DNA of 64,000 nucleotides from a virus (taxonomy: Duplodnaviria; Caudoviricetes), in IMG/VR virus record IMGVR_UViG_3300022723_000184, positions 137,947 to 201,946 of that record. One strand, 5' to 3'. Each line of letters begins with the position of its first letter. Within the stretch, counting starts at the first letter, position 1. Under the pieces are notes generated by a model. The model searched no databases, had not been told where the DNA came from, and was given only the letters and a program-made list of their open reading frames with translations. A program made the translations under genes and the position numbers. Positions 298 through 51,407 of the stretch are shown piece by piece.

Positions 298-1960
298 GGC
301 TAAGGCACCTCGTAGTCTGAACATCCATGTTCCCTGGGCCGAGGTCGCCGAGGCTCTGGAGTTGCCCCTGAAGAGCCAGACACTCCCCGCTACGACCAGA
401 TGCCCATTGTGCGGCGGACGCCGCTTACGTATCTATCAGGATAGCACAAGCGGGGGGTCATGGCACTACTGCGGTGATTGTAAATCCCGCGGTGACATGA
501 TAACACTGGCCGGTTCCGTGTGGAAAACGGACGTCTACGAGACGCTCGACAGGCTGAGAGATGCTGGCATCGATCTGCCCGATACGCAGTTAGGGTCGCC
601 CCAGGTCGTCAGTTACGCCGATCGACAGAAGCGACAGGCCACGATCAGCGAACTTTGGAAGCTGGCGCAGCGTCAATTGTGTGCCGGCCGGATGGGGGGA
701 GTCGCTGACCTGCAGCGGAAGTACTATCTTCGGTTCAAAGGCGACCGTGAGCGGGTGGAGGACGGGCCGGCCAAGCTATACGGGGCCCTGACCGTCAAGC
801 AGGCGGAGCGGGCGTTGTACAGCCCGGGGTCGTTGAACAAGTACGGGCGGACGAAGAACGCGCACCTCGCCTTCAAGGGCCGCAACTGGGGCGATGTCCT
901 GGTCATGCCGTTCTACGACATGCCCCAGCGGATCTGTGCCCTCAGCTTTATGGGGCGCCGCGGCAATCCGAAGACCGACCAGGTGTTTTACACGACGCAC
1001 ACCAGCGCGATCGAGGCGGGCCTCGGCGGGCTGCCCTCGATCGAACTGGCTCATGACCCGGACACGGTGATTGCCGTAGACGACTGGCTGTTCTACTTGC
1101 GGGCCCAGATCCGCCACTTCCGCAGCTCGTACATCCCGATGCCCATGGTCGTATGGCGGGACGAGGGCAAGATCAGGACCCAGCGGGCGTGGAACGCGGT
1201 CAGTGACAAGAACATCGTGTTCTGGGGGTTTAACTTGGACGCCCGGATGATCCGGCACGCGATGGAGACCGACGGCATGATCTCGCTGCTCGGGCCCAAG
1301 GAGTTTGTCGACGACCAATCGGTCGGCCACTTCCTGCGGGACCACCGGGGCACCGACCTGCCCCGCGACGTCATCCGGGCCGCGAGGCCGTGGCGCAAGG
1401 CTCTGGCCCACTGGCTCTCGTGCAATAGGCCGGAGCACGGCCACAATCTGTTCAAGGCCCTCGAAGAGCTGGGCGAGGACGTCAGCCACATCCTGAACCA
1501 GATCGGCAAGGGCCCGACGACGATCGCCCGACCGGTCATGCGGAGGTCGGCCGAGGTCGGCCCCTACACGATCTCCGAGCGAGGCGGGTGCTGGTACCAC
1601 GACAGGTACAGGACCCGGCCCGAGCTGATCATGGATGCGGTTCTCAGGGTGACCCATGCGATCAACGACCTGCGGTCGGGTGACCTATGGTACCGCGGGT
1701 TCATCGAGTACCGCGGGCAGCGGATCTATTTTCTGGAGCCGGCCAAGACCATGGAGGGCCGGACCCTGTTCTGGATCCGGGACAAGGTCAGCGCCGCGGG
1801 TCTCGGGCTGCTGCGGTACAGCTCGATCTGGTCACGGGGTGGGAGGCACAATCTGTACCAGGTGGCCGTGACCTTCGACGAACCGCGGTTTGTGAATGAA
1901 GACCTGGCCTTGCACGTGCAGGAGATGCGTGAAGCCGGGCACCTGATCGATCCGATCTAG
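296..1960 (+). CDS. Protein with N-terminal primase-like zinc-binding domain
   Basis: 554-aa ORF from ATG 296; CPLCGG...HYCGDC zinc motif near the N terminus; remainder unassigned. Confidence 0.55.
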   Translation: MAKAPRSLNIHVPWAEVAEALELPLKSQTLPATTRCPLCGGRRLRIYQDSTSGGSWHYCGDCKSRGDMITLAGSVWKTDVYETLDRLRDAGIDLPDTQLGSPQVVSYADRQKRQATISELWKLAQRQLCAGRMGGVADLQRKYYLRFKGDRERVEDGPAKLYGALTVKQAERALYSPGSLNKYGRTKNAHLAFKGRNWGDVLVMPFYDMPQRICALSFMGRRGNPKTDQVFYTTHTSAIEAGLGGLPSIELAHDPDTVIAVDDWLFYLRAQIRHFRSSYIPMPMVVWRDEGKIRTQRAWNAVSDKNIVFWGFNLDARMIRHAMETDGMISLLGPKEFVDDQSVGHFLRDHRGTDLPRDVIRAARPWRKALAHWLSCNRPEHGHNLFKALEELGEDVSHILNQIGKGPTTIARPVMRRSAEVGPYTISERGGCWYHDRYRTRPELIMDAVLRVTHAINDLRSGDLWYRGFIEYRGQRIYFLEPAKTMEGRTLFWIRDKVSAAGLGLLRYSSIWSRGGRHNLYQVAVTFDEPRFVNEDLALHVQEMREAGHLIDPI

Positions 1961-10529: not shown

Positions 10530-10969
10530 GCGAGGACCACAACTGGAAAGTGTTGGAAGACGCGATCGACATTGCGGCGACCGGCCACCAGAAACAGATA
10601 AGGGCCGACGGTCGACCCTACATCGTCCATCCCGTAAGGATGGCGATGCGCCTGCTGCAGAAACACGGGCCGCTGCTGGCCGCGGTGGCCATGCTCCACG
10701 ACGTCGTGGAGGACACCGACTACACGCTCGACGACCTGGCCGGGCTGTTCCCGCAGCACGTGGTTAAGGCGGTCGACAACCTGACGCGGCGTGACGGCGA
10801 GACATACGATGACTTCGTCGAGCGGTGCGGGGCCAACCCCTGGTCCCGCCTAGTGAAAATGCACGACCTGCGAGACAACATGCGGGACGTGGACGAGTTC
10901 AAGCCGTCGCTCCGCAAGCGATACGACAAGGCCCTCGGCCGCCTGGAGGAGATCGATGCCCAAACATAA
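10526..10969 (+). CDS. HD-domain hydrolase, RelA/SpoT small alarmone hydrolase-like
   Basis: HQKQIRADGRPYIVHP, MLHDVVEDT, LVKMHDLRDNM. Confidence 0.8.
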   Translation: MSEDHNWKVLEDAIDIAATGHQKQIRADGRPYIVHPVRMAMRLLQKHGPLLAAVAMLHDVVEDTDYTLDDLAGLFPQHVVKAVDNLTRRDGETYDDFVERCGANPWSRLVKMHDLRDNMRDVDEFKPSLRKRYDKALGRLEEIDAQT

Positions 10970-11369
10970 GCCCGGGATCAACCCGGCCACCCTGCGGCCC
11001 TCCAAGACGGCGGCCGGCAACTTGCTGTGCCTGACGATCTCCAGGATGGTCATCGGGAACAAGGACCAGTTCGTGCGGCGAGTGCAGTTGTCGCTGTTCG
11101 ACGAGAAGACCGAGTTGTCCGTAGGCTTCGCCATGTTCCCGGAGGACCAGTTCATCGACGCCCTGGGACACCTGTTCCCTCGGGGCGAGTTGGACGGCGC
11201 CAACCTGGAAGACGGGCCGGAGGACGTCGAACAGCTCAACAAAGAGCTGGACGGCCTCAACGACCTGATCGATGGCAACGCCTTCAACAAGGACTCTGAG
11301 AGATACCGGGCCATGGCCCGGCAGGCCGAAATCCGCGAGATCCTGGCCGAACTAAGAGAAAACACATGA
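10956..11369 (+). CDS. Hypothetical protein
   Basis: 137-aa ORF in operon context. Confidence 0.6.
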   Translation: MPKHKPGINPATLRPSKTAAGNLLCLTISRMVIGNKDQFVRRVQLSLFDEKTELSVGFAMFPEDQFIDALGHLFPRGELDGANLEDGPEDVEQLNKELDGLNDLIDGNAFNKDSERYRAMARQAEIREILAELRENT

Positions 11370-11592
11370 GCCATTTTGTGGCTTTGGTGTTCACAGACCG
11401 TGAGCCCGACCAGCACAGGTTGCAGGAAAGCCGGTCGAGTTGGAGTTCGACGGCCACGGCGGCCCCGGGTCGGCCCTCGGGGGCTGGCGGATCCTGACCG
11501 AGGTCCTCTGATGACCCTGTTCTCGGAGCGGGCCACCCGAAGGGCCTACTGGGCCCTGGGTGGTCCGGAGAACAACCGCTGCTGGCGGCCGA

Positions 11593-11629
11593 GTCGCCAA
11601 CAGGCTGCTCATCGACAAGAGGATGAGAC
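11593..11629 (+). repeat. Degenerate CRISPR-repeat-like hairpin in the cas12 5' leader
   Basis: CTGCTCATCG-ACAAGAG-GATGAGAC versus array repeat CTGCTCATCG-GTTTAGAA-GATGAGAC; ends 20 nt before ATG 11650. Confidence 0.8.
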
Positions 11630-11649
11630 AAAAAAAAAAGGAATAGCGC

Positions 11650-13419
11650 ATGGGATTCAATAAGGACCCAGAGGCCCGCTGTGTGGTTTACCAGTACGGC
11701 GGCAAACATCCGACGGAAAACGAAGACGAAGCGATCAACCAGCTCGCCAAGGCGAACCGTTTTCGGAACCGGCTCGTTGAGTTGGAGCTACAACGACGTG
11801 AAGAATACCACGCTGCGTTCTCGGGTTACGGAGACCTGGCGGAGCCGTCAAATCAGCTTGAGACGCTCAACGAGCAGCTGACCGCTGCGGTGGCAGAACT
11901 TAAGGCGTGGAGACAATTGAACGGCACTCGAAGTCAACACCCGACGCTAACCCCGCAGATCGTTTCGCTACGGGCTCAGGCTCGCCAGCTACGGACACAG
12001 ATCAAGTCGATCAAGGAAGCGGCCAAAGGCGATCCTACGGTGCAGGCGGCAATCGAAAAAGCAAACCAGCAGCACCGAGATCAGACCAAAGCTGCGTACG
12101 GCGCTGTAAGAGAATCGAACCCGGAGGCCGAGGACGCCAGAGACCGGCATGGGTTGTTCTGGGGAACGGCCCTCCTAGTTCAAAGGGCAGCGACACAGTT
12201 CCAGAAGGGCCCTCCCCCGAGGTACAAACGTTTCGACGGGACGGGAACTATCGGCGTGCAGCTGCAGAACGGGATGTCTGTGGAGGATCTGTTCACTCCG
12301 GGCGGCAGCGTCTGGATTGACCCCGTTCCTCCGGAGGCCTGGGACCCGCAGACGCCGAGAGGTCAAAGGCGAAAACTCGCAAGAACGATGCTACACATGC
12401 GGATCGGCGGGAAGCCGCAGGCCTGGGTGATTCTAAAGCTACCTGTCACCGTGCACAGACCGCTGCCTGCAGGAAAACTTATCAAGTGGGTCACGGTCAC
12501 TCGGCGTAAGTACGGTTCACAGGCGCGGTGGTATGTAAACGTCACGACGGATATCAGGTCTGGTGGCACGCTTCACGATGATGTTGCGGCTGCCGGATTT
12601 GTGGGTGTCGACCTGGGTTTCAGGTTGTTCAAGCCCGCAGAAAGCAGCTCAGGCAAGCGATCGCTCCGAGTGGCTGTATGGGCCGGAGATGACGGGGAGA
12701 CAGGCGAACTTCGCCTCGACGCGAGGTTTATGTCCTACATCTCAAAGGCCGACGGTTTGAGGTCGATCCGGGACAAGCGGCTTGATCAGATCAGAGCGGC
12801 GCTGCTTCCGTTGTGTGACGAGGCGGGTACGCCGGAGTGGTGGAAAGACGACACTCAACACATGGCCAAATGGAGGTCTCCTCGAAAGCTGTATCACTTG
12901 CTCCACAAGTGGAAAGACAACAGGTGGGATGGCGACAAAACGCTGTTCGATCTGTTGGTTAAGTGGGTAGTTCAGGACCGTCACCTCCACGTGTGGGAAG
13001 CCAACAATCGCCGAAAAGTAGCGGCTCGTCGCCTGGACATGTACCGGAACCTGGCGGCCTCTTTGAGGCGCAAGTACGCGGTTATCGGGATCGAAGACAT
13101 CGATTGGCGGATCTGGAGCAAGTTGGCCCTGCCCGAAGAAGAGGAGACCAAGTCAAAGAAGTTCCGTGTTCAAAAGAAACATGCGGCGGTCGGTCTGCTT
13201 GCAGAGACGCTGTCGAATTGCGGGGCACAGGTTGTACGTTTGGATCCCGCTTACACGACGAAGCGGTGCAACGCCTGCGGCAAGATCACCGAATTTGACG
13301 CTGACCGGCACCTGCGACATACGTGCGAACATTGCCATGCGGAGTGGGACCAAGACTACAATGCGGCAAAGAACCTGCAAGACATGGCGAGCGGCAACGC
13401 CGTAACGCAAACCGCGTAG
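11650..13419 (+). CDS. cas12m: Compact type V CRISPR effector, Cas12m (V-M / V-U1)-like, 589 aa
   Basis: RuvC-I VGVD321LG, RuvC-II IGIE482D, RuvC-III DQD569YNAA; zinc finger C540/C543/C559/C562; blocks RFDGTGTIGVQLQ, LPVTVHRPLP, WRSPRKL recalled as Cas12m-like; adjacent CRISPR array. The subtype needs alignment to confirm. Confidence 0.8.
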   Translation: MGFNKDPEARCVVYQYGGKHPTENEDEAINQLAKANRFRNRLVELELQRREEYHAAFSGYGDLAEPSNQLETLNEQLTAAVAELKAWRQLNGTRSQHPTLTPQIVSLRAQARQLRTQIKSIKEAAKGDPTVQAAIEKANQQHRDQTKAAYGAVRESNPEAEDARDRHGLFWGTALLVQRAATQFQKGPPPRYKRFDGTGTIGVQLQNGMSVEDLFTPGGSVWIDPVPPEAWDPQTPRGQRRKLARTMLHMRIGGKPQAWVILKLPVTVHRPLPAGKLIKWVTVTRRKYGSQARWYVNVTTDIRSGGTLHDDVAAAGFVGVDLGFRLFKPAESSSGKRSLRVAVWAGDDGETGELRLDARFMSYISKADGLRSIRDKRLDQIRAALLPLCDEAGTPEWWKDDTQHMAKWRSPRKLYHLLHKWKDNRWDGDKTLFDLLVKWVVQDRHLHVWEANNRRKVAARRLDMYRNLAASLRRKYAVIGIEDIDWRIWSKLALPEEEETKSKKFRVQKKHAAVGLLAETLSNCGAQVVRLDPAYTTKRCNACGKITEFDADRHLRHTCEHCHAEWDQDYNAAKNLQDMASGNAVTQTA

Positions 13420-13543
13420 CCGATCGATCTGTAGTGTGTACAAGTAGTTGTGGCGGCTACGGAGGGCCGCTGCACTTCTGTCAAGGGTGCCGACGATCGA
13501 ACCGCTCGAAAACGGCCTGATAACCATGTACGCACGTGTAGGT

Positions 13544-13549
13544 TATAAT
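13544..13549 (+). promoter_or_regulatory. Sigma70-type -10 box for the CRISPR array
   Basis: TATAAT ending 7 nt before repeat 1; no clear -35. Confidence 0.55.
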
Positions 13550-13556
13550 GCCGCGG

Positions 13557-14301
13557 ATCGTAATACCTGCTCATCGGTTTAGAAGATGAGACGCGGCATT
13601 GATTGCCTTCTTGAGTTGCTGCTCCAACATCGTAATACCTGCTCATCGGTTTAGAAGATGAGACATCGCCGCATCGCTGGAAGCGGGCGTGGCGTCGGCG
13701 GATCGTAATACCTGCTCATCGGTTTAGAAGATGAGACCTTTCTCTGTGTCCGAGATAACGGGGTCACTAATGTCATCGTAATACCTGCTCATCGGTTTGG
13801 AAGATGAGACAAGCATCCGAGCAGCCGCTACAAGGACAAGATCGGCATCGTAATACCTGCTCATCGGTTTAGAAGATGAGACTAGTCGGGCAATTGCTCG
13901 AACGGCACAGAGATATCGTCATCGTAATACCTGCTCATCGGTTTAGAAGATGAGACGCTTACCGGTGGCCGAGGCCAAGGCGCGATGGAGAACATCGTAA
14001 TACCTGCTCATCGGTTTAGAAGATGAGACACGGTGGATCCGGTCGAGCGGCTGATCCTTCACATCATCGTAATACCTGCTCATCGGTTTAGAAGATGAGA
14101 CCCGGTGATCGACGCGGTCCTCGAGAACGCCGAGGACATCGTAATACCTGCTCATCGGTTTAGAAGATGAGACAAGTGGATCAGGTTCTTCTCATCGTAA
14201 TACCTGCTCATTGGTTTAGAAGATGAGACGCGGACTGCCCCGAGATGCGGCGCCGGCTGTGGGTAATCGTAATACCTGCTCATCGGTTTGGAAGATGAGA
14301 C
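13557..14301 (+). CRISPR. CRISPR array, 11 repeats of 36 nt (ATCGTAATACCTGCTCATCGGTTTAGAAGATGAGAC), 10 spacers
   Basis: Repeat starts 13557, 13629, 13702, 13775, 13847, 13921, 13994, 14066, 14138, 14194, 14266; spacers 36, 37, 37, 36, 38, 37, 36, 36, 20, 36 nt; CTCATC/GATGAG stem; 3' GAGAC end. Confidence 0.98.
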
Positions 14302-14356
14302 GAAGATGAAACAGAAGGCGAGACAACGACTTGATCGCTAAGGATGGAGAAAATAG

Positions 14357-14932
14357 ATGACGACAACCAAAAAGACCCCGCGAGACATGTTGCGGGAAAG
14401 TCTGGCCAACCACAGGCTGGTTGAGCTAGTCCGGACGACGGAGGCCGTGGTCTTCTCGCTCCAACGCGAAGGGACCAGAAACATGTCGACGATGATCACG
14501 TTCACCCGCGAGGGGATCGTGCTCCAAGGAGACCTGACGCCTCAGACCTACGGGTCGGTTAGCGCCAAAGGCTACGGCGAGCGGTGGTTCGCTAGCAAGC
14601 TCAGCGTCAGCTATCTCTGCGAGAAGTTCTTGCAGCGGAAGTTCCGCCTGGAGCTGTTCAAGCATGCTCTTGGAGATTCTGGGTGGCGGTGCGCCGCGGG
14701 GATCTCCGAGGAGAACGCCAACCAAATCGCCAGCGAGACCGAGCTGGAATGCGGGTGCGACGCCTACGGGAAGCTAATGGACCTCGGCCTCGACCCTGAT
14801 ACCGTTCCAGGCGTCGGCTACGATCCTCGGGAGGCCGACGTCCTGTGCGAGATACAACGGCGGTTCGCCGAGCTGCACCGAGAGATATACGGAGACCAGG
14901 TGCCCGAGATCCGGGTACCTGAACGATCATGA
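14357..14932 (+). CDS. Hypothetical protein
   Basis: 191-aa ORF, GGAG RBS. Confidence 0.7.
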   Translation: MTTTKKTPRDMLRESLANHRLVELVRTTEAVVFSLQREGTRNMSTMITFTREGIVLQGDLTPQTYGSVSAKGYGERWFASKLSVSYLCEKFLQRKFRLELFKHALGDSGWRCAAGISEENANQIASETELECGCDAYGKLMDLGLDPDTVPGVGYDPREADVLCEIQRRFAELHREIYGDQVPEIRVPERS

Positions 14933-36635: not shown

Positions 36636-36671
36636 GTCGTAATGTCCGCTCACCGGCTTGGAAGATGAGAC
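36636..36671 (+). repeat. Solitary CRISPR repeat copy
   Basis: GTCGTAATGTCCGCTCACCGGCTTGGAAGATGAGAC, 30/36 ungapped identity to the R4/R11 repeat variant; ends 11 nt before ATG 36683. Confidence 0.9.
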
Positions 36672-36682
36672 GAAGGAACCCG

Positions 36683-38212
36683 ATGGCTAAAAGAAAACCC
36701 CGTAAGCCGACACCGAAGCCGGACGTTGAGGGCGACGACTTCGACGAGTTCCCGGACGAGGTTCGGGAGCAGTCGGAGCCCAGGGCGTCCAAGAAGGCGG
36801 CCGAGAAGAAGTCCGCCAAGAAGGCGGCGAGCAAGAAGCGGGTGGCCCGAAAGGATCCCCGCGATCAAGAGCAGAAGGGCGAGCAGCGTGGCGAGGTCTC
36901 CGACAAACGTGCGCCCAGACCCGCAAGACCCACGGTGAACCTCGACAAACGCAAGCTGACCAAGAAGCAGAAGGGGCAGCTCGAAGAGTGGCGGGGCAAC
37001 ACGAAGGGCAAGAAGCTCGACAGCTATTTCGCTGGCCAGGTGGAGCAGGCCCGCAAACAGTTCGGTCACCGAGCGGTCATGGCCGCGACCGAGGCCGCCA
37101 ACCTGGTCATCGTGATCCCGTGCCCGAGCCTTGCGTTCGAGTACCTGATCGCCCAGGACGGTTTCCCGCTTGGACTGGTGCTGCACCTGGCGGGTCCTCC
37201 TGGCTCGCTCAAGTCGTCGCTGCTCTTGGAGTTCATCCGCTGGTTCCGCATGGCGGGCGGCGGTGGCATCCTGATGGAGAACGAGACCAAGTACAGCCCG
37301 GACCTGCCCAAGTCGATCCTCGGCTACGAGGACGCCGAGGTGGGTTTGATCCTCAACCGGTGCGTTTCGGTCGAAGACTGGCAGGACAAGCTGACCTACT
37401 GGATCGACACCCAGAAGAAGGGCCTCATCGGCACGAAGGAAGAGCCCGGCCCCGGTCGCACGGTTCCGATTCTGTTCGGCGTCGACTCGATCATGGGCAA
37501 GGCCAGCTACGAGACCCAGGAGAAGGTGGCCAAGGAAGGTCACGCCGAGCGCAGCTTCCCCGTGGAAGCAATGAAGATGACCACCTACATGAAGTCGGTC
37601 CCGCAGTGGATCGACGAGTGGCCCTTTGCCCTCGTCCTCAACAACCATCTCAAGATCGGCAAGGATGACACCGGCCGCGAGGTGAAGAGGACGGCTGGCG
37701 GCGTGGGCGTCAACTTCCAGGAGTCCTGGGAGCTGGAGCCCAGCGTGGTCAAGAGCAAGATCGGCTCAGCGGACTGGGACGGCGTGCAGATCCGCATCCG
37801 TTGCCGCAAGAACTCCATGGGCCCCACGCACCGGCAGATCGAGACCCGGATGCTCTGGTGGGAAGAGGAGAACAAGGAAACGGGCGAGTGGGAGCAGATC
37901 ACCGTCTGGGACTGGGACTGGGCGACGATCAAGATGCTCAGCACCCTCAAGAGCCGCCCAGCGGCCCGGCTCAAGGACGCGGGCTTTCACCTGCAGACGC
38001 CCAAGGTCAGCGACGTGGAAAACACGGCCTGGTCCTCGAACCTCGGCATGAAGGCGAAAGACGCCAAGCCGTGGCAGGAGGTCGGCCGCATGATCCGTGA
38101 GGACGATCAGCTGATGGAGACGCTCCGCACGTGCCTGTCGATCAAGCGGCGGCCGTTGCTGGATGGCGATTACCTGGATCAACTTGAGAGCTTGAGGAAG
38201 GACTTGCCGTGA
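36683..38212 (+). CDS. RecA/UvsX-like recombinase
   Basis: GPPGSLKSS Walker A, MENE, FGVDSI Walker B, LNNHLK, basic N-terminal extension. Confidence 0.82.
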   Translation: MAKRKPRKPTPKPDVEGDDFDEFPDEVREQSEPRASKKAAEKKSAKKAASKKRVARKDPRDQEQKGEQRGEVSDKRAPRPARPTVNLDKRKLTKKQKGQLEEWRGNTKGKKLDSYFAGQVEQARKQFGHRAVMAATEAANLVIVIPCPSLAFEYLIAQDGFPLGLVLHLAGPPGSLKSSLLLEFIRWFRMAGGGGILMENETKYSPDLPKSILGYEDAEVGLILNRCVSVEDWQDKLTYWIDTQKKGLIGTKEEPGPGRTVPILFGVDSIMGKASYETQEKVAKEGHAERSFPVEAMKMTTYMKSVPQWIDEWPFALVLNNHLKIGKDDTGREVKRTAGGVGVNFQESWELEPSVVKSKIGSADWDGVQIRIRCRKNSMGPTHRQIETRMLWWEEENKETGEWEQITVWDWDWATIKMLSTLKSRPAARLKDAGFHLQTPKVSDVENTAWSSNLGMKAKDAKPWQEVGRMIREDDQLMETLRTCLSIKRRPLLDGDYLDQLESLRKDLP

Positions 38213-51167: not shown

Positions 51168-51407
51168 CGGCTCAAAACGCGTCAAAATACATGCAGGCAA
51201 CTTAGCCTGCTCAATCAGGACCCCGGAAGGCTCCGTCGGGCATTTCTGCTCGGCGGGGTCTTTTTCTTTTCACATCCATGGAACAGACCCAGTACCAGAT
51301 GAGCCGACCTTCGGGTCACCTGAGACGGGACCGGTCTGTTCCCTGGATCTGAACCACGTGGCGGCCGGAGCCGCCGAAACAAGACACCTCTCAAGTAGGA
51401 GAACGTC

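Follow-up and report, generated by a model that had tools for sequence, protein, structure and literature searches.

The cas12m gene of a jumbo phage (Caudoviricetes; IMG/VR record IMGVR_UViG_3300022723_000184) is preceded by a diverged solitary CRISPR repeat that adjoins its ribosome-binding site. We tentatively propose, giving this reading slightly less than an even chance, that the repeat is a site in the messenger RNA (mRNA) leader at which Cas12m would bind and process its own message, providing translational feedback within a phage-wide regulon. The DNA analysed (the window) is a stretch of 64,000 nucleotides (nt), bases 137947-201946 of the 201,946-bp viral contig, with a GC content of ~0.62; positions are those of the window unless the genome is named, and are obtained by subtracting 137946 from the genome coordinate. 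Judged by sequence, fold and alignment, the cas12m mRNA carries a mimic of the RNA ligand of its own protein, directly beside the region where translation starts.

The repeat of the phage's CRISPR array, ATCGTAATACCTGCTCATCGGTTTAGAAGATGAGAC, carries a 3' hairpin ending in GAGAC, an architecture common to other type V-M loci. Its solitary relative before cas12m (11593-11629, plus strand) is the most diverged member of the phage repeat family, and scores 33.3 bits (E 2e-6) with a covariance model whose training set included this copy itself. Two blocks are identical to the array repeat in the alignment, CTGCTCATCG (10 nt) and GATGAGAC (8 nt), and the sequence CTGCTCATCGACAAGAGGATGAGAC is found at 11605-11629 on the plus strand. 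The pattern CTGCTCATC-N6-11-GATGAGAC matches ten of the 11 array repeats and, elsewhere in the 64 kb, the cas12m-leader site only, with 0 matches expected from 100 shuffles. These results bear out a preliminary description of this DNA, which had reported a repeat mimic before the cas12 gene with both stem arms and the 3' GAGAC end kept. The copy differs from the array repeat at 13 places (three of them gaps), all within the other 20 columns of the alignment, and the 18 core positions are untouched, an outcome to which our own arithmetic on the alignment assigns a hypergeometric P of ~1.4e-5. Because all differences lie outside the core, selection on the mimic, and not decay, is suggested, and the copy resembles a ligand that has been weakened but is still selected for.

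What has been retained is the 6-bp hairpin, the G and the A of a G:A pair and the 3' AC, and what has changed is the loop and the 5' part. G11607 is placed for pairing with A11628, the contacts being assigned by analogy to Cas12m2 (PMC10442227). The loop, GACAAGAG, had earlier been described as different from that of the array repeat and 7 nt long, which holds if the shared first G is excluded, but the 6-bp stem leaves a loop of 8 nt, compared with 9 nt in the array repeat. In the predicted RNA fold the hairpin is present in both the minimum-energy and the centroid structures, and without protein the A-tract and the Shine-Dalgarno sequence are unpaired. The following 20 nt (11630-11649), A10-GGAATAGCGC, hold the Shine-Dalgarno AAGGAA, 6 nt ahead of the ATG at 11650, and end just before that ATG, in agreement with the earlier account. 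This ATG is the first start codon of the frame and agrees with the N-terminus of the nearest homologue. In the whole 202-kb genome the A10 run (11630-11639) is the only homopolymer of at least 8 bases, against an expectation of 0.03 runs of A10, and the covariance model finds no further repeat between 11630 and 13556.

The gene product (P0001, 589 amino acids) is, on the evidence of homology, a Cas12m effector of type V-M, as had been supposed: its best solved relatives, aligned over nearly the full length, are Cas12m proteins (PDB 23vw_A, E 5.9e-67; Cas12m2, E 1.5e-26). It has a C-terminal Cas12f1-like TNB zinc ribbon (PF07282, 3e-13) and a D-E-D RuvC triad. In its structure, Cas12m2 recognises a 6-bp helix, the non-canonical G:A pair beside that helix and the terminal C(-1). 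The last two are read by His269 and Arg270, which stack on the G:A pair, and the heteroduplex comprises the first 17 guide nucleotides (PMC10442227). The His-Arg pair is invariant among 16 homologues, is aligned with the VHR motif of Cas12m2 (H269/R270) and is kept in P0001, and the RNA features that the leader copy has kept (C(-1) and the G:A pair) are those read by this pair.

The repeat before cas12m belongs to a set of at least 17 solitary repeats that lie outside the array in the 202-kb genome, as detected by an ungapped scan, the covariance model and a structural scan. Over 12 distinct sequences the hairpin and the pseudoknot stem are 97% paired, with compensatory changes at four pairs, a result matched by none of 500 shuffles; examples of covaried hairpin arms are CATATC/GATATG, CGCACC/GGTGTG and CCCGCC/GGCGGG. 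Seven copies stand in the sense orientation before ATGs, at genome positions 67857, 72751, 100873, 101887 and 125944 and at window positions 11593 and 36636, and the distances to the ATG are, in the same order, 16, 12, 24, 17, 16, 20 and 11 nt. The open reading frames (ORFs) that follow them have gene-like codon scores and include cas12m and those of a UvsX/RecA-like protein and a baseplate wedge-like protein, and a decayed eighth sense copy ends 14 nt ahead of the ATG at genome position 125195. When the sense copies are placed uniformly inside each intergenic gap, the joint P is 2.5e-6, a value obtained with a placement range that was picked after inspection of the data and which we still consider strong.

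The repeat had previously been said to lie exactly one guide length before the start codon. Its distance of 20 nt is indeed a typical mature guide length, but it is not the spacer length of this array, in which nine spacers measure 36-38 nt and the single exception of 20 nt (AAGTGGATCAGGTTCTTCTC, 14174-14193) has no exact match in IMG/VR. The distance is also not conserved among the sense copies, so that this spacing is not special, and the recurring trait is a Shine-Dalgarno in the guide position (within guide positions 2-18 in all sense copies), not an exact distance of 20 nt.

Eight further units are promoter-driven and antisense (Table 1): a -10-like box, TATAMTRMC, ends ~4 nt before nucleotide 1 of the repeat, as it does at the array. 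The seven on the minus strand (one of them being genome 124139/124039) run directly antisense into the 3' end of a convergent gene, and in three of these the stop codon of the gene falls inside the complement of the repeat. These units look like promoter-driven guides with the phage's own adjacent sequence as their 'spacer'. One solitary-repeat 'spacer', at genome 124103-124138 (minus), after the repeat at 124139, has a second match, with 28 of 29 nt at genome 189125-189153 (window 51179-51207). The likeness extends on both sides to an A-rich stretch, a terminator hairpin and a promoter-like TTGACG...TATTTAGGT, and we rejected the two sites as a spacer-target pair because similarity beyond the spacer on both sides indicates a longer paralogous terminator/promoter region, that is, paralogous intergenic regions. 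A weaker repeat-like unit (25646-25681, minus), followed by ~25 nt and an intrinsic-terminator-like hairpin with a T-run, is possibly a stand-alone small guide RNA gene.

In the mechanism that we favour, the solitary repeat would be transcribed within the cas12m mRNA leader, transcription through the site being assumed from the orientation of the gene. Cas12m that is free of array CRISPR RNAs (crRNAs) would bind the leader repeat as it binds a crRNA handle, and the bound protein would probably cut just upstream, 5' of the scaffold; it is known that Cas12m proteins carry out the processing of their own pre-crRNA, inside the repeat (PMC11013384), and that they cleave upstream of the scaffold (PMC10442227). 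The next 17-20 nt, comprising the A10 run and the Shine-Dalgarno and reaching the start codon, would then occupy the guide position, and ribosome access would be altered, most likely lowered, which would place the effector level under negative feedback. A feedback of this kind at the RNA level had been suggested in the preliminary description, and our results support it in part. Such autogenous control would be titrated by crRNAs and by the other solitary repeats, and would form one arm of a Cas12m-dependent RNA regulon. Binding and cleavage are our inferences, as is the sign of the effect, which could be repression or a stabilisation or insulation by the 5' hairpin. Six other genes of the phage have the same order of repeat, Shine-Dalgarno and ATG at their start, which suggests a role at the RNA level, in translation start regions. 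An effector carrying the pseudo-guide would find nothing to target in the phage DNA, where this sequence has no second match, and the combination of a weakened copy with an 'inert' A10 guide fits titrated autogenous control. The broader proposal is that Cas12m acts as an RNA-binding post-transcriptional regulator which takes at least seven leaders as pseudo-crRNAs, with autoregulation built in and with the promoter-driven antisense units, mostly at 3' ends, in the same network; this we regard as possible, but rather doubtful.

Several observations weigh against autoregulation through this site. The 5' third of the cas12m-leader repeat is diverged, its loop is different and 1 nt shorter, and its pseudoknot stem is GGC/GAC, with two of three pairs left; because the loop and the pseudoknot have changed, and the crRNA, as described for GoCas12m, folds as a triplex-pseudoknot core (PMC11013384), Cas12m binding may be weak or lost. 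No promoter of cas12m was found by a sigma-70 scan of 10900-14500, which gave 0 sites. A possible ORF with a GAGG Shine-Dalgarno (11511-11663) reads through the hairpin; its coding score is gene-like for the first 27 codons only, a homologue search found none, and coding by it is unproven and not supported. Slippage on the A10 run as a means of fusing this frame to cas12m was considered and rejected, as by manual check both +1 and -1 shifts fail to join the two. The choice of the placement range after inspection, mentioned above, is to be counted on the same side.

The comparison with other loci also belongs here. A similar element upstream of other cas12m genes, for which the preliminary description had proposed a search, is absent in 10 loci and weakly suggested in one, so that it is not a general Cas12m feature. 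In seven of the ten loci the locus's own repeat was locally aligned to the 400 nt upstream of cas12m (p 0.10-0.94), and in L087, L088 and L089 nothing was seen upstream of the gene by eye; in several of these ten, cas12m abuts or overlaps its upstream neighbour. The weak case is L004, which encodes a Cas12m homologue of 34% identity and has a family-like hairpin (16.4 bits) 43 nt before another gene: its cas12m shows a weak resemblance to that hairpin 35 nt before the ATG (p ~0.016), overlapping the end of the upstream gene.

Solitary repeats also occur elsewhere. On an unrelated metagenome contig (L084, SDBT01226636.1) a full family member of 42 bits, at 2269-2305, precedes by 33 nt, in the sense orientation, an ORF whose Shine-Dalgarno is AGGAGG, and in Virus Rctr197k, a Cas12m-bearing jumbo phage, a solitary repeat with exact arms is found 63 kb from the array and 22 nt before tRNA-Met. 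In the same virus, a second diverged repeat-like hairpin, GCTCAGT...ACTGGGAC, was noticed ~150 nt upstream, beside an apparent tRNA T-arm. The repeat of this array has its stem, its AC tail and a covarying pseudoknot stem of 3 nt in common with those of six other loci, and across Cas12m loci that pseudoknot stem (5' part of the repeat/start of the loop) reads ACC/GGT, GCT/AGC, CCC/GGG, AGA/TCT, GCC/GGC or GCG/CGC. Single-protein Cas12m searches returned no close relatives of the phage. A first repeat-core scan of IMG/VR gave 33 single matches, which is the chance number, and a tighter pattern was matched 0 times in viral, 4 times in metagenome and 2 times in genome sequences, without arrays. 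The 2 genome matches, both single, came from a scan for the core in one genome of each prokaryotic species, which yielded no bacterial array.

Some of the same features can be accounted for without repression. The repeat may be a processing or insulator element, where Cas12m or a host RNase frees the cas12m message from a polycistronic RNA that begins upstream and the 5' hairpin, whether protein is bound to it or not, stabilises it, with a neutral or positive effect. The presence of seven sense copies at the 5' ends of genes that include baseplate and recombinase genes, the RNA-processing context of the Virus Rctr197k repeat next to a tRNA gene, and the cleavage by Cas12m upstream of the scaffold (PMC10442227) would all suit such an element. 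Against it, Cas12-type effectors normally retain the processed RNA, which would leave the Shine-Dalgarno inside the protein, and we consider this explanation unlikely, if still worth serious attention. A lower probability still is given to control at the DNA level, in which the repeat and the sequence after it would form a CreR-like crRNA that guides Cas12m to a partly complementary site that has a protospacer-adjacent motif (PAM) on its flank, in the cas12m promoter or elsewhere, and blocks transcription. Degenerate mini-CRISPRs upstream of cas12a act in this way in type V-A systems (bioRxiv 10.1101/2023.03.10.532045), solitary repeats precede cas12a in ~1/3 to 1/2 of V-A loci (PMC10120712), and Cas12m is a DNA-binding silencer (PMC10442227, PMC11013384). 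However, a blastn-short search of the whole 202-kb phage genome with the 36 nt past the repeat gave no second match for the pseudo-guide: it returned the sequence itself and a 13/14-nt match only, at guide positions 9-22, outside the seed. The seed would be the A10 run, and the genome has no other A or T run of at least 8; at the locus itself the place of the PAM is taken by the end of the repeat, GAC, just as it is in the array. Neither a second degenerate repeat nor an own promoter was found, and the phage -10 motif that precedes the array and seven other solitary repeats (eight sites in all) is absent before the cas12m-leader copy.

The arrangement also recalls an RNA that takes its guide from adjacent sequence, as TnpB omega-RNA does. 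Such guides would act against co-infecting related phages that lack the insertion, in exclusion or homing, the phage's own copy being protected by the repeat at the PAM position, and the place before cas12m would then have no regulatory meaning. The eight other units with their own -10 box just before the repeat, whose 'spacers' are adjacent gene sequence, fit this, and the Cas12m crRNA core resembles the reRNA (right-end element RNA) core of TnpB (PMC11013384). The cas12m copy, however, has no promoter box, A10 plus a Shine-Dalgarno is a poor guide for specific targeting, the tight spacing of 11-24 nt to start codons is left unexplained, and the searches found no related phage and no protospacer, all of which make this an improbable account of the site. 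We attach as little weight to the view that the copy is a non-functional remnant, a repeat decaying after recombination or after capture of a cas12m-array cassette. No other member of the family is as diverged, a large share of the solitary repeats known from CRISPR loci are regarded as spurious (PMC10120712), and Cas12m cassettes move between unrelated phages, as judged from the cas12m flanks, which are not syntenic between phages. A remnant would hardly be expected to have its differences spare all 18 core positions, to belong to a family with compensatory changes and non-random placement before start codons, or to be followed by the genome's only A10. Neither adjacent-sequence guides nor decay explain the spacing or the selection on the core.

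Table 1. Coordinates of the features discussed (window positions unless a genome or locus is named)
Feature	Position	Strand	Remarks
Diverged solitary CRISPR repeat, 37 nt	11593-11629	+	Alignment to array repeat; covariance model
Hairpin of this repeat	11608-11629	+	Arms CTCATC 11608-11613 and GATGAG 11622-11627; loop 11614-11621; 3' tail AC
Pseudo-guide, 20 nt	11630-11649	+	A10 11630-11639; Shine-Dalgarno 11638-11643; 6-nt spacer, then ATG
GC-rich hairpin	11579-11603	+	Adjoins the repeat hairpin on its 5' side and overlaps the solitary repeat in its diverged 5' part
Possible upstream ORF, 50 amino acids	11511-11663	+	GAGG Shine-Dalgarno; runs through the repeat, stop 14 nt inside cas12m
cas12m gene (P0001)	11650-13419	+	PDB 23vw_A; Cas12m2; Pfam PF07282
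CRISPR array, 11 repeats of 36 nt	13557-14301	+	Leader -10 box TATAAT 13544-13549
Second sense solitary repeat of the window	36636-36671	+	11 nt before the ATG of the UvsX/RecA-like gene 36683-38212
Weaker repeat-like unit	25646-25681	-	23.9 bits
Antisense single-repeat unit	genome 5222-5257	-	-10-like box
Antisense single-repeat unit	genome 7620-7655	-	-10-like box
Antisense single-repeat unit	genome 46773-46808	-	-10-like box
Antisense single-repeat unit	genome 53583-53618	-	-10-like box
Antisense single-repeat unit	genome 105824-105859	-	-10-like box
Antisense single-repeat unit	genome 124039-124174	-	-10-like box
Antisense single-repeat unit	genome 136027-136062	-	-10-like box
Antisense single-repeat unit	genome 136826-136862	+	Antisense into the interior of a minus-strand gene
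L004 hairpin	L004 2247-2274		Family-like
L004 weak copy	L004 3935-3965		Before cas12m
Virus Rctr197k repeat region, L080 (KX853510.1 174400-176400)	locus 1043-1067 and ~1205-1235	-	

The array begins 137 nt past cas12m, with TATAAT-GCCGCGG just before it. Protospacers, sought for the PAM with exact 20-22 nt of spacers 3, 5 and 9, gave no match in IMG/VR. The cas12m gene has a GC content at third codon positions (GC3) of 0.67 and a codon score of 0.08, below those of the neighbouring phage genes (GC3 0.83-0.92, score 0.4-0.6), which is consistent with horizontal acquisition of the cassette. A 10-mer, AAGGCGAGAC, was also noticed after three repeats, at window 14325-14334, genome 100908-100917 and genome ~129520 (minus). 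It stands 23 nt past the last array repeat and directly past two solitary repeats, and may be a truncated terminal repeat.

Autogenous control by RNA mimicry, where the start region of a protein's own mRNA carries a weaker mimic of its ligand, is well known from T4 RegA, L1, S8 and ThrRS. As is the case for T4 RegA, several phage mRNAs in addition to the protein's own would be controlled here, but the proposed regulator is a CRISPR effector and the proposed operator a CRISPR repeat. TnpB omega-RNAs, or reRNAs, consist of a scaffold and then a guide from adjacent genomic sequence. The solitary repeats share this order of scaffold and adjacent-sequence guide with the TnpB units, but have no transposon ends and no tnpA, and are dispersed without a protein gene. 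Where repeat-derived RNAs are known to control the level of Cas proteins (tracr-L, CreR), they act on promoter DNA.

The closest parallel by position is found in the solitary repeat units (SRUs) upstream of cas12a, which are common in type V-A and of debated function, and for which down-regulation of the effector via RNA has been proposed (Shmakov et al. 2023, PMC10120712). Their defining features are present in the cas12m-leader copy, which resembles the repeat outside the array, is intergenic and has no second repeat downstream. In both cases a single repeat outside the array, of modest identity and without an obvious spacer target, lies directly upstream of a type V effector gene. In contrast to the V-A units, this is a V-M system on a jumbo phage, the repeat abuts the ribosome-binding site, with 20 nt to the ATG, and it does not stand alone, at least 17 copies being spread over the genome and seven of these preceding start codons. 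CreR represses the cas12a promoter via a pseudo-spacer (Liu et al. 2023, bioRxiv 10.1101/2023.03.10.532045). As in CreR/CreA, a degenerate repeat upstream of the effector keeps the handle stem-loop, and a sensing of the balance between crRNA and free effector is proposed, but CreR has its own promoter, a PAM-flanked and partly complementary pseudo-spacer target and a second degenerate repeat, none of which were found here. Phages also encode RNA anti-CRISPRs (Racrs), which imitate repeats and are aimed at the systems of the host (Camara-Wilpert et al. 2023, PMC10651486). They too are solitary repeats, and bind Cas proteins as repeat mimics. Whereas a Racr mimics the host repeat and disables host immunity, the copies described here match the repeat of the phage's own array and sit in mRNA leaders.

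Solitary repeats in V-M systems are not described in the literature that we consulted (they are not mentioned in a 2026 preprint on a myxophage Cas12m), nor is a Cas effector that controls translation through a repeat in an mRNA leader. If our proposal is correct, a repeat mimic at the effector's ribosome-binding site would be a direct sensor, at the RNA level, of free versus crRNA-loaded protein, and would give Cas12m tools a translational switch that is compact and orthogonal. There is a substantial chance that the cas12m-leader repeat is part of something larger. Given its recurrence before other genes, this would be a virus that uses a CRISPR effector as a general regulator of mRNAs, and a search for dispersed repeats in other CRISPR systems carried by phages would be warranted.

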